A stretch of 64,000 nucleotides of DNA from Raillietiella orientalis (taxonomy: Eukaryota). Under the pieces are notes generated by a model, which was not told the DNA's origin, made no database searches, and was given only the letters and a program-made list of their open reading frames with translations. This document shows positions 2,045 to 51,156 of this stretch, piece by piece; the stretch's first letter is position 1; every line of letters begins with the position of its first letter. The stretch is from NCBI GenBank assembly GCA_036172245.1, contig JAYWIR010000008.1, positions 2,728,001-2,792,000 of the forward strand, given 5' to 3'. Position numbers and translations under genes: made by a program.

Positions 2045-2969
2045 TTTTTTTTTTTTGGTTCGCTGAGTACCTCAGAGCCGGTCGCGTGCTTCGCGGCGCA
2101 CGTGGTTCTTTTTAGACATTCAACACACTGTTTTGTTTCCACGCCCCTCCGCCCGCGGCAGCCCGCAGGGGGGCGTGTAATTCTTCAGGATAGGGGGCAC
2201 CCCGGGATGCGGGTCCGCCATATGAATCCAGGAAGGGCTCGGAGTCCGTTCCTCTCACGCTTGGGGAAGGATCCCTCCCGGACGGGGGGGATCGCACCTC
2301 CCTCCCTGGTTGTCTCCGAAGGGAATCTCCTTCCTCATTCTCTCCAGAGGGATTCCCTCGGAAGGGGTTGGTCCTCTCCATTTCAACTTCTCCGAAGGGA
2401 ACCCGGAAAGGATCCGTTTGTAGAAATTTCTTCTCCGGAGGGAACCCGCAAGGGAACCGCTCCTGTTCACTCTTCTGAAGAGAACCCCGAAGGGACGCTT
2501 CCGAAACTCAGAAGGGGCGCTGCAGCTTCCCACAGGGAACCTCTCTCCCTTGCCTCCTTGTGCACTCTGTGAAGAGGCGACGACTCGGAGGGACCCCCGC
2601 AAAAGGGGGGTCCGCTCCTTTGAACAACTGGAGAGGTGCATGTGAAGGCTCCTGCTCCATCTTGAAACCGGAGGGCTCCCCCGGTGGGGGGGGTCCGCTT
2701 TCCGTTGCACAAAAGGAGGGGGAAATCCCCACTCCTTGATTTCCTGGGAGGACCCGAAGGTCGACTCCTATTGTTCCGGCCTTCATCGGGGGCCTCCGGC
2801 TTAATCCACCGCCGGTGCCACGCCCGAATGTCTCGGCCAACCAGCGCCATTGAAGGAGAAACTCGGAATCCGATGACGCAGTGGCGTCAGAGTTTCTGCC
2901 GGAGTATTCGAACCTGCGACGCATGGTGCCACACGCGGAAGCCTTAACCACAAGGCCTCCGACGCGGGC
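2045..2969 (-). mobile_element. tRNA-derived SINE-like structured element, copy A
   Basis: Minus-strand head GCCCGCGTCGG..TGTGGTTAAGG..GGTTCGAATAC (A-/B-box-like). Body shares blocks with 8545-9111 and 17528-18311 (e.g. CCGGAGGGAACCCGCAAGGGAACCGCTCC vs CCGAAGGAAACCCGCAAAGGAACCGCTCC). Ends in an A-rich tail. Confidence 0.75.
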
Positions 2970-4189
2970 GAAGCCACTAATGCTGGAGCAAGAGTGCAGA
3001 AGACCACAAACGGGACTTTTAAGGTAGCGAACTTCATGTCACATGTCAAGGAAACACTCATTCTCGAAAACGATTACCTGAAAGGCAATCATTTGCTTGA
3101 TCTTCAGAGAACTTAGAAAGCAAACTCATCTCCTTGCTGATGGTCTACAGCCACCAAACACACACCGAATATCTCCCGCGTGGTCGACTGGCAAAACTTC
3201 CACGTTCCGTCTTAGGACTTCCTATGCTGTCGGTGGACTTGCAGCAGCCGCGAGTGAGCTGCTTTTGCTTTTTTTTTTTTTTTTTTCTTTCTCAGAGAAC
3301 AATACAAAAGAACTGGTGCGTTCCCATTAGAGTCGTTCATCCAATTTGCAATTACTCAGTCATTCACAGTGCGGACCCGATAAGCGCATATCGCCAAACG
3401 TACCACCGTAATTACAATGGTGAATCCAAGACAAAACGTGTCTTTTGAAAAAATGTCCTCTGGATGTACAGCTTCAAACAAGCAGCAAAAAGAAAGACCA
3501 TGAAGGAGCAGCATTTATCAAAACTCGGCGGCGGCATTCAAAGTTATTCCACATGCAGCATTAACGAAAGCCACCCGACGTGCCACCCGATCCCACTCTA
3601 CACTCTCGCCAAGGTGCTCTATTTTGCTTCCAGCTCCTCCCGACACGCCCGCAGCACTCGCATTTCGCGCCATCGTGTGACTGGCATTTGGCGCCGCGCC
3701 GCGACCGGGTTGTACGCTTCCGTGAAAGCAGCCCGCCTGAACGTGGAGATCGTCTGCCGGCACCATGGAGACATCAGATCAGTCTTCGCTCCGCAATTTC
3801 GTTTCTGGGAGCATTCATCTCCTTGATCGTGGAGTTTCCTCGAACTTCCATCAATCACATCGCGCATTTCAAACCAAACCAAGTCGTTCAGAACTCGTAC
3901 TTGTCGTCTGGTGGCGACTGAGAACTTTCTTTATCGTGAAGGGCACACGAGAAGGTTCGATCGGCTCCGATCCCCGATCAAAGTTAACATAACGCGACAC
4001 GACCCATTCACGACGGGAGAAAACGGGACTCGAGAACCTCCCACGTTCCGACGCGGAGGGGATGGAAGGGGTGGAGGCCGTCCAGGTGCCCGAGCTACCT
4101 CAGGGGCCTCAGGTGGCCGTCGCCCCCGAAAGCGTTCCACCCGCTGAGGAGAAAGCTGTCACCTTCCCAGTCTTAATGCCGGGAATCGC

Positions 4190-4380
4190 CTCTCGCCGTC
4201 GTCTGCAGATGGCCCGCTGGAACGTCAACGGGTAACCGATCGAGGGCAATAGAAGGGAGGTGGTCACCACCCTGCGGTCCTTCGACCTGGTGCTCCTGCA
4301 AGAGATCCTCGTCATCTCCGCGGATGGAGCGATGGAGATCGAACGGATCTCGGGAGGGCGACTGCTTCCAAGAGGGTGAG
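4190..4380 (+). mobile_element. Decayed APE-type LINE ORF2 fragment (endonuclease N-terminus)
   Basis: Reads LQMARWNVNG*PIEGNRREVVTTLRSFDLVLLQEIL: the WNVNG and D-x-x-x-LQE motifs of EEP/APE endonucleases, with an in-frame stop. Confidence 0.7.
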
Positions 4381-4492
4381 CCGGGGCCTTTATTAAGAAC
4401 TATCTGAGAACAAAGTTCCCGGACAAAAGGAAAAGAAGTTCGACACGCAGGTCGAACTGCGAGGCACAACTTCTGTGCTTTCGGATTAGGTG

Positions 4493-4866
4493 GAGCGTCC
4501 GATCTGCTTTCGCGTCATATGGGGGCCTTTGTCCCCCACCCCCTCCAAACCGTGGGCGTTTTGGTTCCCCCTTATCTGCTAGCCTTTGGTGACGCGCTTT
4601 CTTCGCTGCCATTTCCTTCCGTTTGCCCTTCGGTACCTGTCTGAATGTGGCGGCCGATTCGCTCGCCCGTCTCACACGGTGGCACTTTATCAGAAAAGAA
4701 AAAAAGAAAGAAAAGGCACAGCAACAAAATTCTACTGCTAGTAGCGCTCGGAGTTTTGGAAAAATCAGCTTCTTGTTGCCTGGTGCACAGTTTTCTGAGC
4801 ACAGAGTGTTGTTTCGAGGCAGTGGTGAGTTCGAGATACAACCAGTGCATCAAATGGTGACCGTAA
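4493..4866. repeat. Left arm of 374-bp inverted repeat
   Basis: Reverse complement of 5977-6350 with about 5 mismatches; near-identical short ORFs appear on opposite strands in the ORF track. Confidence 0.97.
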
Positions 4867-5976
4867 GAAGTGCGTCTTGTGTGCTTCGCTGGAGTCCTAA
4901 TAGCATGGAGACTTCCTGGGGGATCGTGAATTCAAAGCGGTCTCGCGAGTTGGCGGTCACTGCGTTTCACGAAAGACTGCTGACCGCGTTGGCCGGATGG
5001 GAAAAGCGTACTGTTCGGGAAAATGGCGGGGTGCGTCAAGTGGGAGCAGGGATACTGAGTTCCGTCCCCTCTCGGTGTCTCAGCTGGAAATTCAAAAACC
5101 CGAGACAGCCATTTCCATCTTTGGGAATGGGGCCTGCCGAAACACCGGCTTCGAGTTTCCCATTGCGTGCGGAACTCGACCGGATGCGGCGGTTTGGACA
5201 CGAAACCCTCCCGTAGGTGGTCGTTCGCCGTACGGGGGAAGTCCAGATCGATTCGTCATCGTTTTCCCGTGGATCGATTTGGGGAGTCACCCGGGAGCAT
5301 CAGTGCGGCATCTGTGCCACGTCAACGGAAGTTGGCACGCCGAAACGTAAATGCACGCGTCTTTGGTTTCCAAAAGGCGAGTCGTTCGGGGTTTTCCGAT
5401 GCCTCCCTTACAAATGCTTGCATCTCCTCCACTCAAGCGGGTTTGTGTTTTCGACTTCCCGTATGAGTGGCCCTTCTATTCTTTCGCGTTGCATCACCGT
5501 TCTTCGGTTGTCGGGTGCCCCAGAGGTTCGAAATGAGGGTGCAGAAGGGAAGCTGTAATGCAGCCGGACTGGTTGCCCCGGGGCTCCGTGCTCGGTGTAG
5601 CAGGGCGTTTCACTTTGCTCTTTCGAGCCCCGGTAGGAAAACGGAAGCTGCGCTTCGTATGAACGGGAGCGGATTTCTCTGGACAGCGAGCGTGTTCGCG
5701 CAGAGGTGCACGTGGTCACAGAAGCGCGGTTTCGTCACGGGGGGCTGCGGTGATATACCGACCATGACGTGTCAGAAAAGTGAGCCGAAGGCAACGAACC
5801 TGCTGAAGTAATTCACGGTGATTCACAGGAAGGAAGCAGGCAGGGTTGAACCAAGCATTTCGTTTCCCTACGCCGCGTGGGGCATTCACGCCGCACCTGC
5901 CGACTTAGTCACAGAGTACGATCGTGGTTCTTGCATACGTTTTGCATAATGTAAAGCCGACTTCCGTCTGAACCCT

Positions 5977-6350
5977 TTACGGTCACCATTTGATGCACTG
6001 GTTGTAACACGAACTCACCACTGCCTCGAAACAACACTCTGTGCTCAGAAAACTGTGCACCGGGCAACAAGAAGCTGATTTTTCTAAAACTCCGAGCGCT
6101 ACTAGCAGTAGAATTTTGTTGCTGTGCCTTTTCTTTCTTTTTTTCTTTTCTGATAAAGTGCCACCGTGTGCGACGGGCGAGCGAATCGGCCGCCACATTC
6201 AGACAGGTACCGAAGGGCAAACGGAAGGAAATGGCAGCGAAGAAAGCGCGTCACCAAAGGCTAGCAGATAAGGGGGAACCAAAACGCCCACGGTTTGGAG
6301 GGGGTGGGGGACAAAGGCCCCCATATGACGCGAAAGCAGATCGGACGCTC
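5977..6350. repeat. Right arm of 374-bp inverted repeat
   Basis: Reverse complement of 4493-4866, separated by a ~1.1-kb spacer. Confidence 0.97.
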
Positions 6351-8544
6351 AATGCTTCACGTTAAAGCAGGAATTCTAAACAGGAGGCTAAAAAAAAAAA
6401 GAGAAAAAAAAAATCGCAGCGCAACAGAAATTCCAAGAAAAACAAGGCAACCGCCACAACCGTGGGCGGCGCAGTTTTCGAGCTGAGACAAGGACAAACG
6501 CGCTGACCACGAAATTCAAGAATTCGTTCCACAGGTGTATACAATGAGACAGAAGAAACGCACAGGGAGAGGTGTCTTTCCTGCGTGCAGCCAACTCCTC
6601 CGCGCGTGTGAGCAGAGCCCAAGCAGCAAAAAATACGTGGCGTGTCGGCAGGCAAAAGCGGCACGTCGGCACGAAAGTTAGAGAAGGGATGGCGCTTGGC
6701 GCCCAGTTCCTGACACCTGGCGCTAGGAGGATCCACGGAAGCATCCTGCTTTCCAACGACGACGAGGGTGACATTAGTCATCAGCGAGCGGATACTGGCG
6801 CACAGAAAGGGAACGATTTGCTCCGTGAGACCCACTCCCTCCCTCCCACCCCACGAGACAAGCACCTCGGAGTGGTTGGCCGCACCGCTCGGAGTGGCAA
6901 GAACTCCGCAATTCCCAAAGGTGGCTACGCTCAACTTCCATTTTCCTGTGGGTTGAGACACAGCCATCCCGGCAACCGCCGGGGGTCTCTGGCCACAGGT
7001 CGCGATCCGACGGTAGAAGTGGCGATGCAACGATCCCTACGGCGGCTCCTTCCGGTCTCCGGCACATGCACTGGCAGCCGAGTCGGCCCATCTGCCCCAG
7101 GCAGGTCACCCCGTAATACGCCCGGAGCCGGAACAGGTCAGGCGGCGCTCAGAAGGTAAAGTCGATGGCTTTAGAACGCGTCCAGAAGACCGATGGTCGG
7201 CGGCGGCAACGCCTGGCTCGACTGCTGGTCCTAGAGTCTGGTTCCTCTCCCTTGACGTCAGTCCCGCTGGGAGGCACAGGCGTGGGCAAACGAGATGGTG
7301 CCGGCGACTTGGGCATCTTGGATACCGTCTTCTAATAGAGCGGAGGGTTTGGGGAACCCTATCCCGCACATGATTCCAGTGGAATGGATCTCGATGAAAT
7401 GGAAGCAACGGTCATTTCCAACAGCGCCTCGAAACAAACCCTCTGCTCAACGAGAGAAGCTGGGCGGATGATTTTCATTTCGTGCAGTCGTTCCGGGAAC
7501 TACGTCTCGCTAAGCAGCAGCGGAAAGCAAAATGAGGATTTCTTCCCATTTACTTGCACTCTGAAGTCCAAAGAACAATGCCTGAAGGCTGATGGTACTT
7601 CCACCACGCATTCACGTGAAATTCTGCTCTCGAAACCGATGGACGCGACGTGGCAGAGATAGGCAACAACACCTACTTTCGCGGGTATCGGAGTTCCATC
7701 GCGCTTGATATGGGCGAAGCATCGCGTGGAACACTTCAGACCCACGCACTTCCGCACGGACACTTTTTATGTGGTGGACGTGAAGTGGCCAGTGACACCC
7801 GCTGTTGATTTCTGAAGGATTCGAGCGCGAGGGCATTCAACAAGACGAGTAAAGCCCATTTAACACACAACGACCGCTCCAAAACTTCTCGAGGAACTAA
7901 AGAGCCGCCAGAAAAAAACCGGATTTTTGGCTCCTTTGACGTCAGCAAGGGAAGAGAGGGCGGTCGTCACATCAAAATTTCACTTTTCGCCAATGGTCCC
8001 GAACTTTACCTTTCTTCTCCCTTATTCATCCTTAGCTCCTTCGTTTGCGCTCCCACAAATTCAGTGACAGGCTCCCTAACCTGCACTGGAAATCAACCCC
8101 ATCTCAAAAACCTCAATCTCTACTGTTATCTCCAGCCAACCTAATATTTCTCCACCGCCTCCTCCTTTTCCTCCCCCTCGCGCCACAAGGAAACTTTCCC
8201 CTGTACGTGCAGCGACAACGTTGCTCTTCCCTTTCATCTTGCATCTTCTTCAGCTCCTATTCCTCATCTTCGTTCTCCCCACAGCGTACAATCTTCCGTG
8301 GAGAGCTTGCATGTAACAAAGGGTCCGTGTTTTTGTAGCTTGGAAACGTGCATCCGGAATCATTCTGCCGATCCCTCCCCCCCCTCCAATGAAAGCGAAA
8401 GCGAGTTGAATTCATGGGTGATTTCTGCCGTCGTATCAGCAGCAACCACAGTAAAGTAAATCTGGAAACTTGTATCAAAAGAGCACTTGAGCATCCGAGT
8501 GCAGTTCGCTACATGCCGAAAAAGAAACCCAAAGTCTTCCTCTG

Positions 8545-9111
8545 TCGCCAAGAACTCAGGACCGTTCTCCTAGGGAATCATGAAGCTCCTGAACAGTGTC
8601 CACGCCACCCGAGGATGCGTGTTAAGCCTTCAAGTCAGGGAATACGCTTGGGAGGGAAACCCCGCAGGAAACCTTATTTCTCCTCCGAAGGAAACCCGCA
8701 AAGGAACCGCTCCTTGTTGCTCCTCTGAAGAGAACTCCGATTCTTCGAAGGGTCGCTCCCCGGAGGGAGCAGCGCGATTCTTCCACACCCTGGAGAGGCA
8801 ACCCCCAGAGGGGGTTATCAACCAGCCCCAATGGGTAAAACCCTGAAGGGAACGAATACTCCTTGATGTCCTGGAAGGTCAACTTCCGTTCCCAGCCAGT
8901 CAGCAAGGGCATCCGGGGTTTTCAGGCTTCCACCAGTGCTGCACCCGAAGTCCGTGGGTCAACCAGTGTCAACCTGCCGGAAGGGAGGGACTCAAAACCT
9001 ACGAACTAATTTCTTGGCGTAGATCTTTCCTTCCCCGGGCGGGATTCGAACCCGCAGCGCTTGGCACCACGCGCGGGAGACCTCTGCAGCCGCATGGCCG
9101 CTAAAGCAGGC
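8545..9111 (-). mobile_element. tRNA-derived SINE-like structured element, copy B
   Basis: B-box GGGTTCGAATCCC on the minus strand. Collinear with copy C both after the head (GCACTGGTGGAAGCC) and at the 3' end (CGGGTGGCGTGG..CCCTAGGA..GAGTTCTTGGCG). Confidence 0.78.
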
Positions 9112-9352
9112 ATCCTCTGTTGTCGCAAGGTGTGTAGCAAAATCATGACCTGTTGGGTCATGCGAGCAGCATGCCCACGGACAGCACAAAAAATCTTCCA
9201 GAATATGGTTCTGACGCCGGGAACTTTGTCCATGCTCCTCCTGCTCATGTGGCTTCCTCACGGGTTCGAAAAATGGTAGCAGAAGAAACGTTCTACTTCT
9301 CGGTTGGAACGCGCGATTGAGGAGGTGGGTGTGGTGGGGTTTTCCGGGATAA

Positions 9353-9595
9353 ATGAAACCCCGCTTTGCACAGGATGGAATTGTTCTCAGGAAGATACTA
9401 ATCCTTCCCGTGATTCCTGAACTAGAAGCCTCGGGGCATTTAAGCAGGTCCAAACGCTCGAGTGGACCGCCGTTTCCCAATCCACAACAAGAATTCCGAG
9501 CACACGTGGTGGGTTCACCGTTCGGCACGGATGAGTTTAGGCAAAAGCGGTTGCTGGGTGGGAGGCCGAGAGTTACGGCGGCAGTCAACACTTGA
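9353..9595 (+). mobile_element. Possible decayed non-LTR RT fragment (CRE-like)
   Basis: FAQDGIV...ELEASGHLSRSK...VVGSPFGTDEF resembles the YxDD...GL-LN-K...LG-P-G-EF run of CRE-type RTs. Confidence 0.3.
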
Positions 9596-12500
9596 GGAAG
9601 TGCACTCGTCGCCGCTTCCGCTTGGTGTTCGTCAGAAAACGACCGATGCAGCTGCGTGCGCACGGTGAAGTCATTGCTAAAGCGACCTGAGGGGACCGAG
9701 AGACGAATGCTGCTCTGTGCAGAGTTCGCAGAGGACTGGCAACGAGAATCTGACTGACTCATCTGTACTGTGTTCGTGTTCGTGTCTGCAAAGTCGATCC
9801 TCAAAAATGAAGGATCCACAGATGAACAAGTTGAATGTAAGAAAGCATTTCGTTTCTAAAATGCTCATGCATTTCGTTTTCCATCGGAGGGGATCACTCC
9901 TTTTCTTTCGTTAAAGAAAAAGAAAAAGGAAAAAAGGCGCCTGCTGGCTCTTCTGCTTTTGAAGTCTCGGTGGAAAAAATCCGCTGCAGGTTCCAATTTA
10001 CACTGTGCTCACAAAACACGCGCTCAGAAGCAAAGAGCAAAGAAAGAGACGTGGCTCCCGAAGGTTTACAGATGCTTTCGATGCAACTCCTCGGGGCTTC
10101 ACCAACCTAAAGGTGAGATGAAATGTGAAACCTTCACGAAGCACTTCGAAACACGAAACCCAGCCGCACAACTTGGGGCCCCACACCGCGCTGCCACAAT
10201 CATCCCATCCGTTCGGTGGTGCTGATCTGTGAAGCTGCAGAGCGTGGAGATCTTCGCGCAGTGCTCGACTATGCTGCTTACCTGGCGTGCAGCGGAATCC
10301 TGTGGATCGCTGGCAACACCCGGAGGAATAAGTCACCAACGAAAATGAAAAAGGTAATTCATAATGCAGATAAGAAACCTGAAGACACGCGGCTGGACAA
10401 GTTGAAAGGCGACTCCCCTGAAATTCCCGTTCGCGGCTTTTCGACTCGAAATTGCCGTTCCAACAAATCTACACATCGCCCGGGCCAAAACGGATGCAAG
10501 TGCGAGCTACTTCACAGCATGGACCTTCAAGAAAAACGACGGGAAAAGGGAATAACTTCAGAATGGGCGCGGCGCCCCTCGAAAGCCACACACAAAAAAA
10601 AAAACGCTCAAATGCAAACAAAACGCAGCAAGGCAAACAGCACAGCAAGCAAAGAGTGAAACACCAGGTGACGGCGATGATTCTGGAAAGCAGATGAGGA
10701 CCACGCGCAGTGCGAAGAACAAAGGCGCCCCAACATCATCGATGTGCAGTACGAAACTTCAGGCTGCGTGTGCACTTATGCCAAGGCTGTTTCCATCCAA
10801 CAAACACAGCAAACACCATTCGCCACAGTACTGGACGCTGTAACGATTCCGTACCCGCGGGCGAAAACAACATGACTCCGTGTCGGAAAAAGTGCTGCAG
10901 CGTCCAGGCGCAAAAGGACAGGAATTGTTACGGCAAACACGCCCATTGCTTTCCGGTAAACGAACACACGTAAATTTTCGAGATACTTCGGCTGGGCAAT
11001 AAATCTGTTGCAGGGAAGCGCCGGCGAAATTTACCGTACGAACTTTAGGCAAGACTGACCACAAACGTAAGAAGCGCAGGGAAAGTTATGTTCTTTGCAT
11101 TGAAATCACGTGTGCAATTCATGTAACTGGTGTCCTTGATGGCGGCTGAAGAATGGAATAGCCTTCCACTTTCTTTCGACCGGCCACAAAACAGGAAACG
11201 CTAAACCAGGTTAGTAACCAACTACTTTAAAATAAACAACCGACTGCTTCATCATTCGTGCTGTTGAAATGTCATCAGGCGCTTCGGTACAAACAAAGCG
11301 GCGCCATACAAGTACTTCCTGAATTACACCTTACTAATCGCTTTTTTCACCCACAAACTACTTAATACTACCAAATTTTAGAAATGCAAACTCTGGACAC
11401 CCGTGGTGTCACTTGGATTTCTGCCACTGGTCTCAAAAAGGTGCCTGCAAAACTCGGTCTCCTTCTGTATCACTTGTCATTCTGTCCTACTGTCAAGGCG
11501 TGAATTCTATTCCTCGAGGATGCCACCCACATACAGGAGCAACAAGAACGGTGTTCCTTGTACAGTGGAACCGTTTCCGTGGTTTGCAAGTGTATTTCGA
11601 TCAACTTGGGTACGATGGCGCCCAGAGCAGTGTGTCTGGAAGTGTATCGGCAGATCTTTTGTTGAGATCTTTGAAGCCCACCTCAACTACACAAATACGT
11701 GTGAGAGTTAAGTAATCTGGAGAGCTGAAGGTACAGTGGAGGAAAATCGGGTACAGCATACACTACACTGGAATCACAGAAGTGCTGGTGCAGCCCTGAC
11801 TTGCACTGAACTGACTGCTTCATCATATAAACCACAACAGCCTTGCGGAGTTTCAATTCAACAATCTTTCAGAAAGATTTCATTAAAATTGCAAATGTTT
11901 GGCTAACGTCCAGTACTTCCAGAATCTCCATCACTCCTGGACCTGCCATGCTTTCGCACATGGTGATACTTAAAGATCAGATCACTTCTACAAAAAAATA
12001 AAAATGAAAACACAAACTCCTATTGAAAATCATATACGAAGCTCCCAATCTGGTTCGTAGTTCGCCATGGAAAAAGCAGTCAAAGACGCTTCCAACAAAA
12101 GGACGAGGAAGAAAAAAAAAAAAAATTTTTCCGTTCGGTACGTCTTTAGACGAATGACGTTGAGTACATACTAAAAGTGTTCGTGTCTCACTTTTTTTGG
12201 TCAAGCTATAAGTTTGCTATGAATATTCCATTGCCTTTGCAATCCATTGGCCTTCAGGGAATCGAAGGTTCCTTACTGATGGAGGTTGCCAATATAGTAA
12301 AAGCAACCATTCCAAAAGAGCGTAAGGAATGCAAAATTTTCAACACCAATTCGGACTTTTGGAACTCCAAACTGATAACTGAACGAGAAACTGGAAACCC
12401 TTGCATAAGAAACAAGTGTTGCACACACATCAACTCGTAAAATGGCAGCAATTCATAATGGATAATTTCATTTCTAAAGTTCACTATCAATAACGCCCAG

Positions 12501-14930: not shown

Positions 14931-15725
14931 TAATAGTGATAATAAAGCTGACCAATCTTTGAAGCAATTTCCCCAATTTGCCATCTTTTCAGGCCATATT
15001 TTAAATCAAGGATTGACCTAAAATAACAAAAAGGAAACAAACACGTTAAAGTTTCATGGGTATTTACAGTTCTTTGGCAAATTTACTCTTCAGCTCAGTT
15101 TGATGAAGAGGCTGCTTACAAAAAACAGCAGATACATTAGAAAAAACAAAGTACAGTTAATAATTATAGTACCAATATGGGAAAAAAAATCAACACAAAA
15201 ATTCAGATTAAAAAAGGAATTTTATTGATGCATTCCAGAATCATAATACCTGTGTTGCTGCTGAAATTTCCATAATTTGGTGTACACATCAAATGCTTTT
15301 GCAAAATAATTTTGCCACTGCTTCTGCCCATATGGTGGGAGGTCTCTTGAAATGACATCACATAAATACCAGATGACCACAACTGATATAATTCTAACAC
15401 GAATATGCAAACACATCCACACGTACACTACTGAACTGCACACATTCACGTATGCATGCACGTTTCTATACATAGATGTGGGAGTGCAAATGTTTTACAT
15501 ATGCTCATCTTTAAAGAATTCTAAAATTCATTACGAGTTTGGGTAAAACACTCAAGTCACACTTGACTATACGATGAACATAACAAAGGTACACAAACCG
15601 AAGGCTACACCAAAGAAAACAAACACAATACCCGATGCTTCATACCTTAAACCATTGAAAAGTTGCTTCGACTTTTCCAATAATCGACAAAACTCATTCA
15701 CTACTTTCCTTTCCTGTTCATCCAT
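14931..15725 (-). CDS. SCAI: Protein SCAI (suppressor of cancer cell invasion) homolog, 5' coding exons only
   Basis: Exons 15725-15646, 15345-15250 and 15017-14931 with GT-AG introns in consistent phase 2 translate to MDEQERKVVNEFCRLLEKSKQLFNGLRDLPPYGQKQWQNYFAKAFDVYTKLWKFQQQHRSILDLKYGLKRWQIGEIASKIGQLYYHY, closely matching the conserved SCAI N-terminus as I recall it. Confidence 0.93.
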
Positions 15726-17527
15726 ATTAACAATTTTTTCCTTAACAAGCTCCAAAATCGTGGCTGCATTATTTGAACGTCTTGCTGGGAATACGGGACG
15801 AGAAATTCATTCCAACTGCTACCTCTCTTACACTACCGCAAGTAACCTTCTGCAGTGTTTACTCCCGCAGGAATCTCACATTTTCAGCAGGAATTGTGAA
15901 ACATTGGGAAGTGAAACGCGTTTGGAAGTACAAAATATTCTTTGACTGTTTATGAAGGAAAAAAAAACGGAAATCACAAATCGCGATTGCGTTTGTTTTT
16001 TGTTTATATCATTCGAAATATAAATTTCATGTGCTAAACTTCTAAGTCAAAAATAAACAGGGATTCAATGGATAGAAATATTGCGCATTGTAAAGTGTAT
16101 TGTAATTTTCAGCATCGATGAAAAGCACAATATGAAGCTCTCCAGCAGATGCAATGAAGGTATGTATTCATTCATGAGCCTAAATGCAACGAATAATCAG
16201 TAGGCTTAATACAACCGAAAGTCTGCCGCATTATCAAATGAATTGAGTCATAACCAGAAAAAGGAAAAAGAAACAGCATTTTTTAATGCATTAGCATTCA
16301 TCACCAAAGCTTGCCAAAATGGGGCGTGCATGTGTCTAGTGGCACAGAGTTTTCAGATCTATGAAAACAGATTCACTCGTATTTCTTCAGAAATAACGAG
16401 CTGGATCACTGAGAGAAAAAAAGTTCCTTTGCTTCCGAATCTTAATTCAAACCATGATTAGTGCAATTATCACACAGATATTTTTGTGTCCTCGAATCTT
16501 CCCCTTAGGGTTTCAGCATACTTTCCACATGATTTTAAATTTGTCGTTGTACATTGACGAGGAAAAAAAAAAAATCCGCTGATAATTCATATTGAGGTGT
16601 TTGGAAACCTCCTGTGTGATGGCCCGATAGCCATATGGCAACGGACCGACGTTCAGAAAGATTTCTCTTTCATTTCCTGATTTATGACGCTTCCTGGTAC
16701 TTTTCGCGCTTCGCCGTCACATCCGATGACAACGTTCTAATAACGACCCTTCCTCCAGTAAATGAATTATGCTTCCAAAATAGATGCAGGTTTTGTGAAT
16801 ACGAACAATGAGTAGCGTTTTGCCTCTTGGAGGAATGCTTTCCAGATGGCTGATTCATCCACAGAGTACAACTTTCTCCTGTTTGTATTTATGAGAAATG
16901 AAAGAAATGCAGTCGGATTCGATGCATCATTTGGGACCCATGTATTGATCAAGATACCGATTGGGATACCTTGCTTGCATACTCGTATCGCAGTGTCATA
17001 GGGAAAAAAGATTCACGCATTCGTGTGTCACTGCTTTGGTTTCACGTTTCCAAGAGGAATAATTTCAGTGATATCTTTTGTTGTACCAAATCTTCTGAAG
17101 CTGCTGTTGCTGCTTTCTCCATTCACTTGAATACGTATCCCGTGTTCAAACTTGGGCCTACTTCGTTTTCGTCATCGGTCGAATAGAATTGCGAAGCACC
17201 GAGTGCATCTGATTGCAAACCAAAAAGAAATGGATGCTTTTCTGATGGATCATTAAAACAATCTTCTGGAATGCTGACAGATGCCAAAATGACGAAAACA
17301 TTGCCGAAATGGAGCCTGCAGGACATCCCCGAGGAGTGAAACCCATTGCGACGTCCCTCGTATCACAGATTTGATGACATGTAAGAAAGAGTGGAAGATG
17401 GGGGAAAGCCCCCCCTTCCCCTCCCCATTTGTTTGTATCCTTGTAGCTGTTCACTTTAGAAATGCATAGACAAACAAATCAGTAAATGGATGGGAGCGCT
17501 ACAAAGATCCAAAGAGGAACATTTGCG

Positions 17528-18311
17528 GCCCGCGCTGGCCGCCGGCCGTGTAGCTGTGGTCTCCGCGCGTGCCACTAAGCGTTGTGGGTTCGCATCCCGC
17601 CAGGAGAAGGAAGGATCGACGCTGAGAAATGGGGGATGCGTCGTGGGTTTCGAGTCCCCCACCCCGCAGGATGACGCTGGTTGGCTTGTTCGGGTGCGGG
17701 CACTGGTGGAAGCCCCGTTGACTGGCCGGGATTCGAAGCCGGTCATCCAGGGTGCCTTCCAGGAGGAGCCGGTTCCCTTCGGGGTTCCCCTCCGGTTGTG
17801 CAAGTGCAGCCGTCCTCTTCCCCTCGAAGGGGGCCCTCCATCGTGTATCATAGAGTTGGTAGATCTATGCCTCTCCAGAGTGTAAGAGCGCTGTTCTATT
17901 CCAGGAACGACCCTTCAGAGAAAATCGGGGAGCGCCTCTTCAAGGTTCTCTTCAGGGAAGGAGGGAACAAGTAGCGATACTCCTGAGGAGGGGGGTCCCT
18001 CCGAAGAAATTTCAGGAGAGGATTTTTTCCGGGTTTTCTTCAGAGAAGAAATAGGGAGTTCCTACCCCCTCCGGGGAGACCTTCCGGAGAGGATGAGGAA
18101 GAGGTGGTTCCTTTCGGAGTTCTCTCTCAAGCGTGAAAGGAACGGACGCCTTCGTCCGGAGCCTCCTGGATTCATAGAGTGGTATACCTACGGGGTTACC
18201 CCTCAAGTTGAAGACTTACACACACCCCCGGGTGGCGTGGGCAGTGTTAAAAAGAGCTTTGAGATATACCCCTTAGGAAGGTTCTCGAGTGCTTGGCGGG
18301 CCCCCAAAAAA
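17528..18311 (+). mobile_element. tRNA-derived SINE-like structured element, copy C
   Basis: Head GCCCGCGCTGGCC...GGGTTCGCATCCCGCC; internal blocks shared with copies A and B; 3' motif GGTTCTCGAGTGCTTGGCG followed by an A-run. Confidence 0.78.
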
Positions 18312-18717
18312 GGGAAAAGCACGAAGAAAAAAAAGCTGGAAGGAAAGCAGCGAGAACAGAATTTAAAAGGATTTCCACCATCCTTGGCCAATAGCAACGA
18401 TCTCCCCGTGAGGTTGCTACGGGCTTTTTTAAAAAAAAAATGAGAATAAAAAAGACAAAAACAAAAAGTAGGATCTCCCCCCCCCAAAAAAAAAAAAAAA
18501 AAAACACTGCATCACTGCCTCGTAACAGGCAACGAGGTCAGCTCAGGCACTCGGAACTGACCGGGTTGTGTTTCGCTCGGTCGCATGCCTGTTAAGAGAC
18601 GGCAAGTCGAAATGAAACGTTTCCTGAACGAATCATTTATTAATATACATCCACTGCATACTTACAATAATAATTACTTCAGTTCTCAAGGGCACAAAGG
18701 GGTCTTTTCCGTGCCCT

Positions 18718-20530
18718 TCAGAGCTGACACATGCCATCGTTTTGGTAACACCAGTACGGTGCTATGGAGCTGGCAGCGATGCCTCTGCTTGTCATGCGAT
18801 CTCTGTGGCTGTGCATTCTGGTTACGGCGCTGTCCCACTTGGTGGAGGGGTTGGACCACAACCTCTCGGCTGCCGCTGAAGCACGCGGCCACATTTTCGC
18901 GTGTATCGAAGGACCGTCTGCCTGCTCCCCGAACATGACCACCTCTCCGCCAAGAACCAAAGGCAGTTGCCTCGGTCCGCGTACGATGCTGTCGAGTCTT
19001 TGCAAGGTTATGTTCAGGGCCTCTACTATCTCTTCGGGATTGTTGTCGTATATCTTCATCCAGGGAACATACGGAGAGCACCAGTTCAGACCGGACCCGG
19101 TCCACTGCTCGAAACCGCAGTCCAGGTACCACGCATCGTGATTGCTGAAAATGATGCGGTATCCCTGCTTCAGCAGATTTTCGATGGTGGGGTCGTTAGC
19201 TGTCGTCCACACTTGGACGATGAAGTTATCCTTGTTGAAGAAATTCTTGACGGACTCTCCTTCGGTCAGCCGGCTCGACCAGACAATATTGGTTATGTCT
19301 TTGCCGTTCTTAGCTTTGGTGAACCGATCGTTCGACTTGATCAGGAACTCCCCCCACATGTTGAGGAAGGTCTCCTCGTTCCTTTCGATTCCTGCTTCTT
19401 CTAGGTGCTGTATGATCTGCTCCGTTTTGTTCCAGCAGTTGATGTTTACCTCGTCGCCTCCAAAGTGGAAGAGGTCGCTTTCGAAGACGTCCAGCATATC
19501 CCGGTAGATTTCCTCCAGGAAGACGAAAACGTTTTCATTGACGGGGTTCAGCTGCCCGCAAGGAGGTTGGAAGCAGTACTCTTTCCATTCCCTCTCGTTG
19601 ACGCAGACGGCCAGCTGACCTTTCCCCTGTTTCTCCCCCCACTGCCACCCGTTTCCGGAATGCGAGGGGACATCGAACTCGGGCACCACGCGCACCCCGC
19701 GGTACTTGGCGTAGCTGATGACTTCGCGGATGTCTTGCTCGTAGTAGACGTGCCTGGGGGAATACGCCCCGTAGGTCGTCATTTGCGGGACGCGCTTGCT
19801 GTAGAACGGGAAGCTATTGGAGTCGGTGATGTGCCAGTGCAGGGTGTTCAGCTTGTTGTACCCCATGCCATCCAGGATCTGCATCAGGGTCTCCACCGGA
19901 AGGAAGTTCCTGCTGGTGTCCACCATTACTCCGCGGTATGGATAATGCGGCTTATCGGTGATGGACGCCTGAGAGAGGATCTGGAGGCTGTCGTGCAGCT
20001 CGTCGTAAGAAATCAACTGGCTGAGGGTTTCCAGCCCGTGGCGGGCTCCGAAGAACGTGTTGGCCAAGATGACCACCGACACGTCTTCGTTTACGGTTTG
20101 CAGCCCGAGCGTGTAGTTCTCGTCGGTAGTCGAGGTCATCCTCTTTTCAGCGGACACCACCACCAGCTCGATTCGCACCTTGGTGGACAGGAGCAGGGAG
20201 TTGTGATTTTTGGCGAAGACCTGGTCGCCGCGCTTGCGGTATTCTGGGTGGGCTGACTTGATGGTCTCGTTGAAGATGCGGGTGGCTTCCTGGAGCATCG
20301 CCACCACCTCGTTCGACGGACCGGTCGCCTTGGTGATGATAATGTTCTGAGGGAGGACGGGGAAGACCGTTTTTCCGAGCTCCACTTTCCCTGTGGGATG
20401 GGGCCACAGGGAAGCGAAAGCGCCGCAGGTCAGTTTGCAGGACTGGAGGGTTTGCGTTTCCGTCACATTGGTCCTGTCTTGTTTGACGCACCGGTTGTCG
20501 ATGCACGCCCAGCTCCAGGGCGTTGGCGTG
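18718..20530 (-). CDS. GH20 beta-N-acetylhexosaminidase (chitooligosaccharidolytic beta-N-acetylglucosaminidase-like), large catalytic exon
   Basis: ORF carries GH20 motifs RGVMVDTSRNF, LHWHITDSNSFP, PEFDVPSH, catalytic HFGGDEV, WYLDCG and WPRASAAAERLW. The frame extends 5' of the track's start through TPTPWSWACIDNRCVKQ to a branch point (GCTAAC) and acceptor TTTCTCCGACAG|20530. Stop TGA at 18718-18720; AATAAA on the minus strand at 18636-18641. Confidence 0.95.
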
Positions 20531-21879
20531 CTGTCGGAGAAACGAACACAGTTAGCAGGCGTCTTCCTCCTCCTAAAGCTACCGGGGACGCGCGGTGACC
20601 GAACCGAAACGGTGACGGTGGCGACCTGTGCGTCCCCTTAACCTCCCGGAACAGTGGCTGCTTTTTTGCAACGTTCGGGAGAGACGAGAAGGAGGGGGAG
20701 AGTTGCTACGAATAGACTACAGCGAAGGACGGCAGCGAGTCTGAGGCCGTTCCTTCGTCGTTGTAGGCTTTTCCCGTTCCGCAAAGCGGGACCTTCAGAG
20801 AGACGGTCGGGAAATGGACGCTGCCGCACGGATCCGCGCTAGAAGTCTGCCACCAGGACGCCGGGATTCGGAGGGAAGAACGCGGTCTCTGGAACCCGCC
20901 TCGTGAGCCCTTCGCAGGCCGACATCAAACTGTCTCTCCCGTCCCCTCTTGCAGGAGATCGGTTGCCGCACGGAGGAACCGCGCTCTCGATTCCTCTTCT
21001 GCGTTTCGCCGGCGGACCTGAGTCATTTCCGGCTGGAACGCGTTCGAAATGTACTGTGTTCCTCAAGACTTGCAGACGAGAGCGAATCCGATCGCTGCGC
21101 CGGGAGGGCACCCTACAGAGCCGCCGCCTCGCGGGCACCTGACCGTATCTACTAGCGCCGGAATCCCCTGAGAGCCATCCACCAGGGGAACTCATTCAAA
21201 CGTGCGAACGTTGGCGTGTGCACCCCGAGAACCCCCCTCTAACGAACTGCTGCTTCGTCAGAACGAGATTCCTGTGTCTACAGTCGCCGTGGTCCCGCTC
21301 TTCTCGAGCAAAGCCACGCGGGTCGTTTCGCGTCCCCGCTCGCGGAAGCCTGTCCTCCATCGGGCACGTTTGTCCCAGGTACAGGACCTTCGCTTATCTA
21401 CAGGAACCGCTTCCGAGTGTTCTTTATGTCTGCGAAAGGCTTAAAATTTAAAAAAAGGAAAAAGATTAGAATTGGCTCCCCACGTTTGAAGGCGTGAAGA
21501 CATCATGTTGGATGAAGATGAACGAAAAATAGCGCCTGCTCAGATCTCAGAAGGCAAACCGAGAAACCAAAGTCTCCCTCACGAGACAGATCCCGCGTGT
21601 GTGCAACGCGCGTGATGTGAGTGCAAAAAAAAAAAAAAAACACTGGATGCCGACTTTTTTCCCAAGCGCGTAAGCGGTTAGGAGAGAAAGAGTGCACGAT
21701 GCAGGGATTCAGGGACGCCGCATGGTAACAGCGACACTCGTGAAGGGCACGAGAGGGTGGATTGCAACTTTTCGTGCTTAGCTCCGATGCAGGATATCGG
21801 GGTATGGTTGTTTTTTTTTTTTTTTGCCCAGGATCCACAAACCTGTCGCACTAGAGGGAAGTCTCTGGCCAGTTCGCAC

Positions 21880-22725
21880 GAAGAGGAATAAAGGAAAGGG
21901 ACGGAGGTTGCAGGATTACAGATTCATCCACGCAGCTCGTTCAAACACGAGCTGCGTGGATGAATCTGTAATCCGGCAAACGTTCCACCAATCAGGGCCG
22001 GGTCCAGGATTGAAGCAGAGGATCACACATGTCGGCGCTGCCTGACGAAAGACGAAACGTTATCTCCTATCTTAAACCAATGCAAGAGGCACTTTCATCT
22101 GTTCCCTGAGCGACACAACGCGATCCAGGAAATAATCAGGATGGCCGCGGTGGATGAAGCAGAGTGGACATCAACGAACCAGAGAGCTCCAGGAACGGAC
22201 TCCACCTTGCGACCACAACTAATACTGAAGAAAGCAAATCGAACCAAGTGCTGGACATCTGCAGCCCGTTCTACGGTAGAAATGAGGCGTTCAGCACAGC
22301 TAGGAGGAACAAGCTGGAAAAATATAAGAAAGTAGCTTTCCAGCTAAGCAAGGAAAGGAAGCGATGCAGGGTGCATGCTCTCATCTTTGGCTCACCAGGG
22401 GCCTGGGGCCCAGATAATAAGGAAGTGCTGCATAGTCTTGGAGTTCCTAAAAAGCCCTCGGAGAGGATGAGACACCGAATGGCGGCTTCGTGCATCCGGC
22501 ACTCCAGGGACATCTACGCAGCCCACATCACGGGAGGAATAACACGAAACTCAGATACAGCCGGAAAGACCCAGCCGTCAGCTCTCGCGAGACGGAGGAC
22601 AAGAAGCTGAGGGAGAAACAGAATGAAGGGCAACGAACGCCCCGGATGAACAGATGAGGAATCGGAAGAATGTGAGGAGCCCCTTCTGCAACGCAATGTT
22701 AAATTGTAAATTTAAGCAATAAAAC
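21880..22725 (+). mobile_element. 5'-truncated NeSL/Utopia-like (R2-group, REL endonuclease) non-LTR retrotransposon fragment
   Basis: Across frameshifts: DYRFIHAARSN, CRRCLTKDETLSPILNQC...RHNAI (degenerate CCHC knuckle), LRPQL, VLDICSPF...ARRNKLEKY, FGSPGAW, SRDIYAAHITG. AATAAA at ~22718. Confidence 0.85.
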
Positions 22726-23511
22726 CCCTGTTGCATTCCTGGTTCGAGAAGAGACGGTCACCGAGGAGATCGGAACGGTGTTTGACGGTGGAGGGTGGAT
22801 AGCTCTGCAAAGGAGGAGGTCCAGGAGCTTCTCCTCCGAGGAATCAAAGATGAGGCTACCGAAGTCACCGCGGCCACAAGTCATGCGGAAGCTACGATTC
22901 TTGTGACGGAAGAAACATGGAAGCACTTTCTCGGAAAGAGTTAAAACGCGGATCCGGGAGCGCTCGCACGAGAGATTTGATTCTGGCAGTGGGATGAGGT
23001 TGAGGGTTTTCGTCAGTACTTTCACAAACTCGGGAAGCACCGGCGCAAACGTCCCGGGAGCCCGCGTTCCGATTCAAGAATTTGTTTTGCGCGACAAACG
23101 CCACTTCAGCAAGGAAGGAGCACGGAAAGAGCTGCGTCCCTCCCCAGCGAGAGCGCGACCTGATTGAAGAGGAAAAGGATGCCTCATCAGATCAAAAGCA
23201 GTGGCGCTGCGTCAACAAAGAGAGGTGGAACGCGATCGTAGTTGCTTTTTCTCGAATGGCCTCCGTGCACTGCTAGAAGGCACGCAGACACCGAAAGTGT
23301 TCCCGCGAAATCTCATGCCTACCTGATCCTACGTGTGCTCTTCACGGTGAAACGAAGTGTGCCGCTTCGTCGCCTCTCTCGCGTACAGGACAGGAAAGGA
23401 GACCGAGGAGCCATCGGTAAGGGGGAGGAGGAGAACGCCGAATTGGGAACTGAGGCAACGCAAAAAGACGAGTTCAGAGAGAGAGGAAAGCGAGAGAACC
23501 AAGGAGGGAAG

Positions 23512-23944
23512 AGGAACTGGAAATTCCAAAGGGTGGGAGATTCCACCCCTGGCCAGAGGGAAGCCAGTTAGCGAGTACGCTGACAACCCCAGCAGCGAAA
23601 CCGGGGTTTGAAGGCCGGCTGCGCGAAGGTGGTCGTCTCGAACCCGTGCCTCGGTACTCCGAACTCGTCCCGGCCTTCACGCAGGGGATATGGGTGTCTG
23701 GAGAAACGAGCTTCCTCAGGCACGACCTTTGACCGGATCGCCGAGCGACCCCCTTCCCTGGCTCCACTGAAAGGGAAGGAACCCTGCGAGTCATGAACCC
23801 TCGCGGTAACCACGGGGTTCTGCCGTTCGGCTCCCTGATTCGCACGAAGGGATTTTTCGTGCCGAGTCAGGAACCACCGCGAAGGGTTTTTGCCCACGAT
23901 TGGGGGATGCTCAGTGCTCCGACCGGCTGACTCCTGGTTTTTTT
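23512..23944 (+). ncRNA. Candidate highly structured ~390-nt RNA element with degenerate tRNA-like head and T7 run (probable distant member of the SINE-like family)
   Basis: The 5' segment 23553-23602 pairs with 23884-23937. Internal stems: GAAGGCCGG/CCGGCCTTC (23610/23670), CCTTCCCT/AGGGAAGG (23752/23772), CCTGATTCG-CACGAAG/TTTCGTG-CGAGTCAGG (23834-23871). TTTTTTT at 23938-23944. G-U wobbles favour the plus strand. Confidence 0.5.
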
Positions 23945-24400
23945 CAGCGACACCACCCGCCTATCATCCAAGGGCATGGGAAAATGCCAGAGTCTTCATT
24001 AGAAGGGGTTTGACCGAGCCCTTCGGACCGATCCTGGCACTACCGAAACGTGTGAAGCGTTTTCCCCCTCCTCTTCTTTTCTTCTCCTCGTCTTCCTCCT
24101 CCGGCTACGTTCACCATTCGCTTTGCGGGTCCTCGCATAATCCTGGACGTGCGCAAGCTGTAGCATCTTCGAATCGATCTTCATATCTTCCTTCTTCTGT
24201 GCTCGAAGCAAGGTTGCCTCTGCGTTCCCCTGGCAACAGCTGCAAGGCCCGAAACGGAATGGGTTAGATAGTGAACGACTTCTCAAGAGAGAGAGAGAGA
24301 GGAGGGGGAAGGGGGAGAAACACAATGATGATGCAGGACTTTCCCATGGGGGTTTGCGGACGGATACGCCAGCCGTCTTCCCAAAGAATCCTCCAGGTGA

Positions 24401-25000
24401 CGCGCTGGCGGCCGCGTGGCTGCGGCCTCTGCGCGCGGCACCTGGAGGCGCGGTTACGAACCGCCGTCGCATCCCTCGTAAAGGCTCAGACGCTGAGAAT
24501 GGGAGGTGTGTCGCGGGTCCCCCTCCGCAAGACGCCAGTCAGCTCACGGGCATGGATGCCCCCTTGGAGACCGGATGCCCCCCCTGGCAACCGGTAATTG
24601 CGAGTCGACCCTCCGGCGTACTTCCAGGAGTTACGGAGCTTCGGGGTAGCCCTCCAGTTCGCGCCACGGAGTCTAATATCCCTCCCTCCTCCCCTTTCCC
24701 TGATGGTTCCACCCCAGTTTGTTAGAAACGTGCTCCCTTCCGAGAAAACCGAAAGCATTCCCTTCGGAGACGACCAGGGAAAGGGTTCCTTCCCACTAGT
24801 GAAGGGGAACGGATCCCATCCTCGGAGCCTTCCTCGTGTTCTTCGGGTGGTCCCTTCGGGGGTTTCCCTCTGACCAAGTTACTCACGCCTTCAGGAGGCG
24901 CGACCTCGTTCAAGGAGCCGGGCAAGCCCACATGCCCATCGTCGAACCTCTCCGATGCCCCTGAGGGACGAAAACCGTTCCCGAGTGCCTAGCGAGTCCC
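24401..25000 (+). mobile_element. tRNA-derived SINE-like structured element, copy D
   Basis: CGCGCTGGCGGCC head, GACGCTGAGAATGGG block and 3' GTTCCCGAGTGCCTAGCG, matching copy C in the same order. Confidence 0.68.
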
Positions 25001-48436: not shown

Positions 48437-48581
48437 AAAAACGAAGTGTAGGTTTTGGATCCATAGTTGCCGTGTGGGCCGATTTCATGTACAGAATCCC
48501 AACTACGGGGTGAACTAGCCCTTGCTTTTAGTTTGCAAAGACATCAGATTAGTTAAATTCCAAGGAAGATGCTGCTACAAT
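48437..48581 (-). ncRNA. Candidate two-hairpin small ncRNA (H/ACA-like or Pol III), copy 1
   Basis: Collinear with 51010-51156, with sharp boundaries. Minus-strand stems TTGTAG/TTGCAA, GCATC/GATGT and CCGTAGTTG/CAACTATGG; ANANNA hinge; ACA then TTTTT. Confidence 0.5.
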
Positions 48582-49387
48582 CAACAGGCAGCAAGGAGAC
48601 CACTGATAGCACACAAACATGGAGCCAACTGGTAGGACAAAGCTACCTTTGCTTTACATGTATCTACCTGACATTCTGGTATGTTGGATAGATATGTTGG
48701 CAGGTACACAGGGATCTGGGTCTGAAGTGTTTGGAGTTTTTGCGGCGGCAGGTTTGCTATGCAAACAATATTCTAATGAAATTCGGGTGTGAAGCAGAGT
48801 TCCGTGAGCATCACTCAGTCACTGATGCTGAACCCGTTGGAAATTCTTTTTTGAAGTTTACGTTAATACAGGAATGATCTTTTAGATATTCTGCATGCAT
48901 TCTTTCACAGTGGGCAAAAGAAGCTTATACATGGATACGAGCTTCCAACTGGTGTCATAACAAGATCATTCAAATCATACAGCAAACACAGATGTCTATG
49001 TTCTTTAGTTTGAGAACATCTTCAAAACTGTAGCAACAATTTTAACATCTGGTGGCAAGTTTCCCAAACAAACAACAGCAAGAAATGAACAGAAAACCAT
49101 TTGGCTCAATTCAATGAAGCATTTGCGATAAGTCATCTTTAATTGTTTCTGACCAAAATCCTTTGAAGTTTTAAGGATTGAGGCAATGCAGAACGGATGC
49201 AATCAGGAAACTAAATTCTAGATCAAAAATCCCTTTGTTCATGGTTTTCACTAAAGTCTGGCTATGAGTTCTTGAAACTTTGAAAGAAGAAAATGCACTT
49301 CATGTAATTTTAGTTCTATAAAAAGCACAACACCTTTCAGATTCATTTTATAAACAAAAGGTTTCACAATCTACATAAAAGCTTCTC

Positions 49388-51009: not shown

Positions 51010-51156
51010 AAAAATGAAGTGGAGCACCTTTGGATCCATAGTTGCCCTGTGGGCCAATTTTACATGTATAATCCCAACTATAGGATTAACTAGACCTTTC
51101 TTATGGTTCGTAATGACATCAAATTAGTCATATTCCAAGGAAGATGTTGCTACAAT
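51010..51156 (-). ncRNA. Candidate two-hairpin small ncRNA, copy 2
   Basis: Paralog of 48437-48581. Substitutions keep the pairing (TTGTAG/TTACGA, ACATC/GATGT); hinge ATAAGA; ends CCACTTCATTTTT. Confidence 0.5.

Follow-up and report, generated by a model that had tools for sequence, protein, structure and literature searches.

Four SINE copies in the window

The window, a stretch of 64,000 nucleotides (64 kb) from Raillietiella orientalis contig JAYWIR010000008.1, contains four dead copies (A-D) of an abundant, unusually long SINE, an odd variant of a familiar element type. Profiles built from genome-wide copies gave exactly four matches within the window, which are these copies. The first-pass annotation had reported four near full-length copies; their places were approximately right and A-D are indeed homologous, but the element is longer than was then seen.

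Copy A (2020..2969, minus strand) belongs to the young (Y) subfamily, is 95.5% identical to the Y consensus and spans Y positions 1-972, being 5'-complete, 3'-truncated inside the A-rich linker, without the terminal hairpin and without a clear TSD. Its tRNA-derived head (2897..2969, minus strand, B box at 2904-2914) matches the genome's own tRNA-Arg(CCT) in 47/77 columns and is predicted to form a long 5' hairpin instead of a cloverleaf, and its body of hairpin modules occupies 2061..2896 on the same strand. Copy B (8546..9111, minus strand) is of the old (O) subfamily, with 86.5% identity to the O consensus, a terminal branch of 0.24, an internal deletion and a 3' truncation at the core-end motif; an 8-bp TSD flanks it (3' copy at 8538..8545, minus strand, 5' copy at 9113-9120). 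Copy C (17528..18440, plus strand) is also of the O subfamily (86.4% to the consensus) and is complete down to the genuine 3' end of the element, the profile match reaching 18440. Copy D (24399..24994, plus strand) is the most diverged, with an internal deletion, a stop at the core-end motif and a degenerate B box; it is 74-75% identical to all three family consensuses, has a branch of 0.6, and its best relatives reach only 70-85% over short pieces.

At the 3' end of the element an A-rich linker is followed by a pair of hairpins and then by a T-run and poly(A). In copy C the single-stranded A-rich linker (18299..18366, plus strand) is the site where most 3'-truncated copies stop, and the terminal hairpin pair (18367..18440, plus strand) includes a T6 run at 18425-18430, a putative Pol III terminator, and an A10 tail; young copies have the same 3' end with hairpins, T-run and A tail. 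The motif previously taken for the shared 3' end is thus followed by about 140 nt more, and of the A-runs thought to end copies A and C, the one in A is internal, being the linker of a copy truncated at its 3' end, and C ends at 18440.

Family size and tRNA-like head

Copies A-D are real members of a SINE family with a tRNA-like head, of which the 210-Mb genome holds several thousand copies. Separate genome-wide counts gave 4,187, 4,040, 2,289 and 5,094 candidates spread over many contigs, far beyond the 100 interspersed copies asked for by SINEBase; six family matches were found in 3 of 20 sampled stretches (200 kb in all), and a gapped-pattern count gave 31 rows at a stringency too high for a copy-number estimate. 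The full element measures about 0.87-1.08 kb (without tail, about 870 nt in O and 1,076 nt in Y), and against the SINEBase limit of less than 1 kb, old copy C has 903 nt before its A tail and the young consensus lies just above the limit.

The tRNA-like heads are real by comparison with the genome's own tRNA genes. The best of 30 such genes, tRNA-Arg(CCT), matches the O head in 51/78 (65%) and the Y head in 46/77 (60%), SINEBase asking for at least 60% over at least 60 nt, and the head of the intermediate (I) consensus reaches 54% with gaps counted and 65% without; this set comprised 30 of 62 tRNA matches and lacked His, Leu, Ile, Pro, Asp and Tyr. ARAGORN called no tRNA in the window. No T4 run lies inside any of the three consensuses, and the A/B boxes together with the T4-free body are only indications of possible Pol III transcription from an internal promoter. 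The copies are overlapped only by chance stop-free frames (judged without a Pfam scan), and RT coding is ruled out by size since the element is too short for it, which makes the element non-autonomous. The earlier suggestion of a non-autonomous retroelement or Pol III RNA family therefore stands as regards a tRNA-headed retroelement; a separate family of Pol III RNA genes seems improbable, there being no sign of one. The proposed Rfam search was negative: Rfam 15 gave no covariance-model match in the window at the gathering score and none for a near-consensus young copy at E up to 1. We found no description of a long structured SINE like this in the open-access literature, and no match to the family in the plasmid collection searched. 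A metagenome scan with a 22-nt motif gave a single match, a chance one with no homology beyond the motif.

Source lineages and decay of the copies

Several source lineages are present, as had been proposed, and they differ by whole hairpin modules. We distinguished three consensuses, old (O), intermediate (I) and young (Y), with sublineages coexisting within each; the O and I consensuses are imprecise because both are sublineage mixtures. One module of about 43 nt comes or goes as a unit: 25 of the 47 old copies could be measured, 10 having the long and 15 the short form. Typing two hairpin modules automatically gave results too noisy for use; in the first interval 25 copies were typed, and 21/46 old copies and D could not be measured. 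In the tree the old group is star-like and the Y clade is supported. Copies B and C, which had been attributed to separate selected lineages, both share about 86% identity with a single old consensus and sit in the star-like part of the tree; they stem from one old burst and have since decayed, while A is young and D most diverged.

Private changes per site amount to 0.552 at paired and 0.543 at unpaired positions, which shows neutral decay of the copies after insertion and lends no support to the idea that diverged copies retain structure. Compensation among private changes was not in excess (5/228 at paired sites). CpG decay was rejected as a source of the variants separating B from C and D, C-to-T changes occurring at 0.134 at CpG vs 0.143 elsewhere. 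Among full-length young copies the one nearest to the consensus shares 95.3% identity with it, and accordingly no intact master was seen among the 53 pieces.

Local hairpins and the proposed end-to-end stem

Against 25 dinucleotide shuffles each, only copy A folds better than expected (z -4.65, antisense -4.83), whereas B (z -0.96), C (-1.83) and D (-0.69) do no better than their shuffles. The consensus folds beat shuffles (O z -3.4, Y z -5.4; antisense z -2.1 and -3.4). In the 3,034 nt of the copies the motif CTTCGG is found 11 times in sense and once in antisense orientation (66 times in the whole 64 kb, both strands), and the bias is 6 vs 0 in both the O and the Y consensus. The sense-strand bias of the motif is therefore borne out, but only 4/6, 5/6 and 3/6 of the consensus motifs close a stem of at least 3 bp.

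The first-pass annotation had further proposed an RNA closed by a conserved stem, in which the segment after the head pairs with the 3' motif and which persists even in diverged copies. Complementary words do occur: in B the 9-mers at 9011..9019 (5' arm, minus strand) and 8546-8554 are present and complementary, and C and D contain 7-mers at 17620/18292 and 24491/24988. However, the arm in B is predicted to be unpaired with its partner. The stem has a pair probability of 0.02 in B and of 0.00 in C, in D and in the old consensus, and no minimum-energy fold predicted for a copy contains it. The perfect 9-mer of B has a frequency of 0.0004 in shuffles, but a match of 7 bp including a G-U pair, which 20% of shuffles attain, is there already in the old consensus, and two private changes lead from it to the 9-mer of B. 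All seven pairs are kept in 8/47 old rows, which favours the stem; against it, in every lineage the bases involved are also claimed by a local hairpin, the variable pair shows no covariation (5' T with 3' A in 3/8 old rows, 5' C with 3' A in 7/31, some rows being 3'-truncated so that flank is aligned there), the motif falls short of the true 3' end, and one strand is deleted in 23/23 young and 4/11 intermediate 5' regions. Copy A, in which no stem had been visible, belongs to the Y lineage with this deletion. A conserved covarying 5'-3' helix, as expected of an end-paired (rod-like or circularising) RNA, was not found. The long-range fold, the striking feature of the earlier finding, is absent, and the reading built on it is already largely refuted, with next to no chance of being right.

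Local stems fare differently between source lineages. When the predicted fold of Y is used, 15/27 changed pairs are still paired in the comparison with I (P = 0.005) and 13/20 in that with O (P = 0.0013), against 76/253 for private changes; pooled, 28/47 changed pairs are retained vs 30% under neutrality, the two comparisons overlapping in that the branch to Y is common to both. With the fold taken from I or O instead, P was 0.12 and 0.24, and across 12 settings the P value for retention lay between 0.0002 and 0.13 and that for the rate difference between 0.0002 and 0.39. True double changes numbered 4 vs 1.6 expected (P = 0.07). One pair among 45 young copies is G-C in 35, G-U in 3, A-U in 7 and A-C in none, and the neighbouring pair across lineages is A-U in 22, G-U in 9 and G-C in 22; measures of the pair count that are robust to relatedness gave no significance (72 and 82 of 500 shuffles). 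A second pair is a counter-example (C-A 5 vs U-A 3), and among shared young variants pair-keeping C-to-T is about as common as pair-breaking G-to-A. RNAalifold found no consensus fold for 59 real 5' regions (-0.78 kcal/mol). The claim that lineages were selected for structure thus holds in so far as local stems tend to be kept between lineages above the neutral rate, but the support for this is moderate and depends on the lineage that supplies the structure. Selection on the source genes to keep predicted local stems is moderately supported.

Insertion of young copies

A TSD of at least 8 nt was found in 26/48 young copies (22/48 had none), compared with a mean of 0.66 and a maximum of 3 in 200 shuffled pairings. 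Most young copies (39/48) start within 10 nt of the 5' end and 4/48 start more than 50 nt in, additional short 5'-truncated pieces being found among the tail matches. The terminal hairpin and tail are missing in 20/30 young copies, and of 12 breakpoints chosen by hand, 10 lie at sites with less pairing than the average (0.57-0.87 unpaired vs 0.35). The marks of LINE insertion known from tRNA-derived SINEs (TSD, A tail, 5' truncation) are therefore present, and the TSDs, 5' truncations and 3'-truncated copies together point to LINE-driven insertion, often with internal priming.

No partner LINE was identified from tail matches, an RT search and a 3'-end comparison with one LINE family. Of 30 tail matches, 26 run on into the SINE body and 4 are short pieces. 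The RT search gave 3,358 candidates, of which 150 were scored and 30 loci cut out; all 30 belong to one family, so the comparison is confined to it. The suggested comparison with LINE 3' ends showed no significant likeness of the SINE tail to this dominant family (25 comparisons, best P 0.025 vs genomic background and 0.097 vs shuffles). A few short words shared in order between its tail and that of the SINE were rejected as evidence.

Discussion

We consider it probable that the family is a long tRNA-derived SINE, driven by a LINE and spread by successive source genes, in which local stems were selected and no end-to-end stem exists. Transcription by Pol III would start from the internal A/B boxes and run through the T4-free body to the terminal T-run, giving an RNA of 0.87-1.08 kb with an A tail. 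A LINE reverse transcriptase would copy this RNA by target-primed reverse transcription, primed at the A tail or, more often, at internal single-stranded A-rich patches matching the target, and priming at such patches would account for the tailless copies. The source genes succeeded one another from O through I to Y with gain and loss of whole hairpin modules. The likeliest reason for selection on the stems would be that a compact RNA with UUCG-capped hairpins lasts longer or makes a better RNP.

The same SINE might instead carry its hairpins as a by-product of a palindromic module duplicated or deleted by slippage or template switching, without structural selection. Modules do recur along the body and the 43-nt module comes or goes as a block, the antisense strands likewise beat shuffles, and the tests with folds from O or I are not significant; on the other hand, a copy-level repair process is not visible in the compensation count, stems are kept between lineages about twice as often as under neutrality, pairing is also kept in the non-repeated head stems, and CTTCGG is biased to one strand. 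We therefore hold this explanation to be unlikely. Much less probable still is a functional host gene for a rapidly evolving Pol III RNA of about 1 kb, the copies being its retropseudogenes, comparable to mammalian tailless 7SK, U2 and 5S copies, and O, I and Y its history: mostly 5'-complete and tailless copies, stems retained along the source lineage and a length beyond the SINEBase range agree with such a gene, but several sublineages stand side by side within O, I and Y, thousands of copies with a body beyond the tRNA head fit the SINE side of the SINEBase distinction between SINEs and RNA pseudogenes, and neither an Rfam match nor an intact master was found. A broader proposal, in which the RNA of about 1 kb would be a selected RNP scaffold (a new host Pol III RNA gene or a SINE-master line), its many-hairpin fold kept through at least 20% sequence change while hairpins were added and removed, leaving a dated, mostly tailless fossil series of how its structure evolved, and in which the RNA's copies would also serve as a landing site for the Tx1-like LINEs of the genome, seems to us quite improbable.

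The long tRNA-derived SINE that we favour is ordinary in kind. It shares with the tRNA-derived SINEs of SINEBase the tRNA-related head, non-coding body, tail, high dispersed copy number and subfamilies set apart by internal duplications or deletions, and differs from them in its length, its hairpin-module body and the lack of a detected partner-LINE region. Three traits are unusual: it is longer than all 175 families of the 2012 SINEBase table (75-662 nt), hairpin modules in series make up its body, and most sampled young copies would have been primed internally. If the stem retention holds with all copies, the family would be a good natural system in which to ask whether the success of SINEs is limited by RNA structure, because thousands of neutrally decaying copies form a built-in control.

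Previous work on therian tailless retropseudogenes and SINEs (Noll et al. 2015, PMC5322556) explained them by internal priming, which for SINE RNA was described as occasional; 3' truncation at single-stranded A-rich regions and TSDs overlapping the RNA end recur here, but in an arthropod, and with 20/30 sampled young copies tailless. Structured tRNA-derived SINE RNAs such as Brassica SB1 (three stem-loops; PMC2408557, citing Sun et al. 2007) and the Vhc stem-loop found in SINEs of molluscs and arthropods (one 40-nt domain; PMC4758252) resemble the present family in a head that forms long imperfect stem-loops in place of the cloverleaf and in stem-loops kept among SINE lineages, a likeness by description and not by sequence; here, however, about twenty hairpins extend over 1 kb. 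The non-autonomous LTR elements Cassandra, Helenus and Ajax, which are reported to have small-RNA-like parts (PMC10886601), also carry a tRNA-like sequence in a non-coding mobile element, but the present family has no terminal repeats and shows an A tail, variable TSDs and 5' truncation.

Copies and anatomy of the SINE

The first-pass annotation had claimed four homologous copies in the window, and this was borne out (A, 2020..2969, -; B, 8546..9111, -; C, 17528..18440, +; D, 24399..24994, +): A, B and C match one another at E 1e-24 to 1e-6, and profiles built from genome-wide copies match exactly four places in the window, D among them. Neither a tRNA gene (ARAGORN) nor an Rfam match was found within the window. 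Searches of the genome (assembly of 210 Mb, 491 contigs) gave thousands of candidates, and 20 stretches of 10 kb at round coordinates held 6 SINE hits, confined to 3 stretches, from which the copy number scales to roughly 6,000 with a wide error.

The 3' motif that had been taken as the end of the element is internal, since the unit runs about 140 nt beyond it: an A-rich linker is followed by two hairpins and a T-run, and poly(A) closes the element. Young copies measure about 1,076 nt, and among the old ones copy C is full length, with its end at 18440. Among 30 tRNA genes compared (six amino-acid types were absent from the set), the head is best matched by the genome's own tRNA-Arg(CCT), at 65% for the old (O) and 60% for the young (Y) consensus. 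Its predicted fold is a long hairpin, not a cloverleaf, which is similar to SB1, a SINE that has given up the cloverleaf for stem-loops according to PMC2408557 (citing Sun et al. 2007). No T4 run is present inside the O, Y or intermediate (I) consensus, which would fit Pol III read-through, although alone it counts for little. In the O and I consensuses the head is followed, at about positions 105-120, by another B-box-like word, which may reflect a duplication of the T-arm region.

In SINEBase (PMC3531059), 175 families span 75-662 nt with a working limit of 1 kb, and the commonest layout is a head, an unknown body and a tail. The present element works like a tRNA-derived SINE in its testable properties, with a young form just above that limit, and it is a long, hairpin-modular, often tailless variant.

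Lineages and age of the copies

The 45 old copies together with B and D have a mean identity of 78% to their own consensus and 66% to one another, flank columns included. In a tree of 70 copies, whose bootstrap had not settled, the old group is star-like (terminal branches 0.18-0.37, D 0.6) and the young clade is well supported (terminal branches 0.03-0.07). Identity to the old consensus is about 86% for B and for C; A stands at 95.5% against the young consensus, and D matches every consensus at 74-75%. Searching with an intermediate copy yielded a bridging group, sampled at 11 of 40 scored places. Lineages differ by whole modules, such as a unit of about 43 nt (10 with, 15 without, among 25 measurable old copies), and therefore several source genes existed. 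Thus the proposal of several source lineages holds, but not its reading of the B, C and D divergence as a lineage signal, because those differences are mostly decay.

The end-to-end stem

The headline claim, a conserved long-range fold pairing the segment after the head with the 3' motif in B, C and D, was not supported. The complementary words are indeed present, but the pairing probability of the helix is 0.02 in B and 0.00 in C, D and the old consensus, and a local hairpin occupies the same bases in every lineage. The old consensus holds a 7-bp match that includes one G-U pair, and 20% of shuffles reach as much; 8 of 47 old rows keep it, by a rough estimate about as many as decay alone would spare, and those 47 rows gave no covariation at the variable pair. 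Part of the 5' strand is deleted in 23/23 young and 4/11 intermediate 5' regions, and the most recent burst took place without the stem.

Local stems

The CTTCGG motifs are strand-biased in the copies as noted earlier (11 sense vs 1 antisense). Retention of structure in diverged copies did not hold up: only A folds better than shuffles (z -4.65), and B, C and D do not (z -0.96, -1.83 and -0.69). The O and Y consensuses do fold well, with z of -3.4 and -5.4 on the sense strand and -2.1 and -3.4 on the antisense strand (20 shuffles). Private changes of young copies, the neutral control for the stems, are equal at paired and unpaired sites, and pairing survives 30% of them. Between-lineage differences at Y-predicted pairs kept pairing in 15/27 and 13/20 cases in two overlapping lineage comparisons, and were about half as frequent there as at unpaired sites. 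One pair in the young group (G-C 35, G-U 3, A-U 7, A-C 0) passes from G-C through G-U to A-U with no A-C state. Retention was weaker when I or O supplied the predicted fold (P 0.12 and 0.24), and over 12 settings P was 0.0002-0.13 for retention and 0.0002-0.39 for the rate difference. Double changes in stems numbered only 4 vs 1.6 expected, the direct O-Y test gave P 0.04-0.12, relatedness-robust pair counts were not significant (72 and 82 of 500 shuffles), and the real copies yielded no consensus fold. We regard it as likely, though not proven, that the source genes were selected to keep their local stems. Conserved stem-loops are described for Vhc SINEs in PMC4758252.

Insertion marks and truncation

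TSDs of at least 8 nt flank 26/48 young copies, vs a mean of 0.66 in shuffled pairings; 39 of the 48 begin no more than 10 nt from the 5' end, and 4 have lost more than 50 nt there. The terminal hairpin and tail are missing in 20/30 copies found with A as query. By eye, many tailless copies stop within the A-rich linker or close to it, and their final bases also belong to the TSD, the pattern of the tailless retrocopies by internal priming which PMC5322556 describes for mammals. Copy B, flanked by a TSD of 8 bp, breaks off at the 3' motif of the core. The same sequence of about 20 nt follows four young copies (right flanks of L040, L147, L032/L138 and L139), with TSD lengths differing between L040 and L147, which suggests that one site in another repeat took up insertions more than once.

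LINEs of the genome

The 30 RT loci extracted are all members of one LINE family, which encodes an endonuclease-RT (APE-RT) frame of about 1,200 aa together with a zinc-knuckle ORF1. Tandem arrays of it are frequent; those at L201, L202 and L204 run head to tail with a period near 5.6 kb. By its architecture the family is probably Tx1/L1-like. It has no long A tail: its 3' end is a small hairpin carrying 3-4 A residues, whose likeness to the SINE tail was not significant. One of nine LINE ends examined, the 3' end at L203:5980-6090, adjoins an antisense old SINE copy at about consensus position 612. Locus L205 carries tandem RT frames of another family.

Neighbouring features in the window

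Directly downstream of copy C lies an intronless GH20 beta-N-acetylhexosaminidase frame (18718-20637, -), whose best relatives are 41-49% identical, the named ones including crustaceans and springtails; this suggests a pancrustacean host for which the databases contain no near relative. A frame fragment at 22158-22740 (+), followed by AATAAA, had no Pfam hit and presumably resembles the restriction-like endonuclease region found at the C terminus in elements of the R2/NeSL/Utopia type. Blocks of 31-44% GC alternate with blocks of 60-71%, and SH2-domain coding pieces (61259-63348, -) lie inside a very GC-rich stretch. Arms of 374 bp at 4493-4866 and 5977-6350, 99% complementary and enclosing 1,110 nt, are a young foldback or MITE-like insertion. 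We also observed a hairpin at 21908-21979 (33 bp, 97% complementary, loop of 6 nt) and another repeat of about 150 bp in two copies (48437-48584 and 51010-51159, 80% identical).
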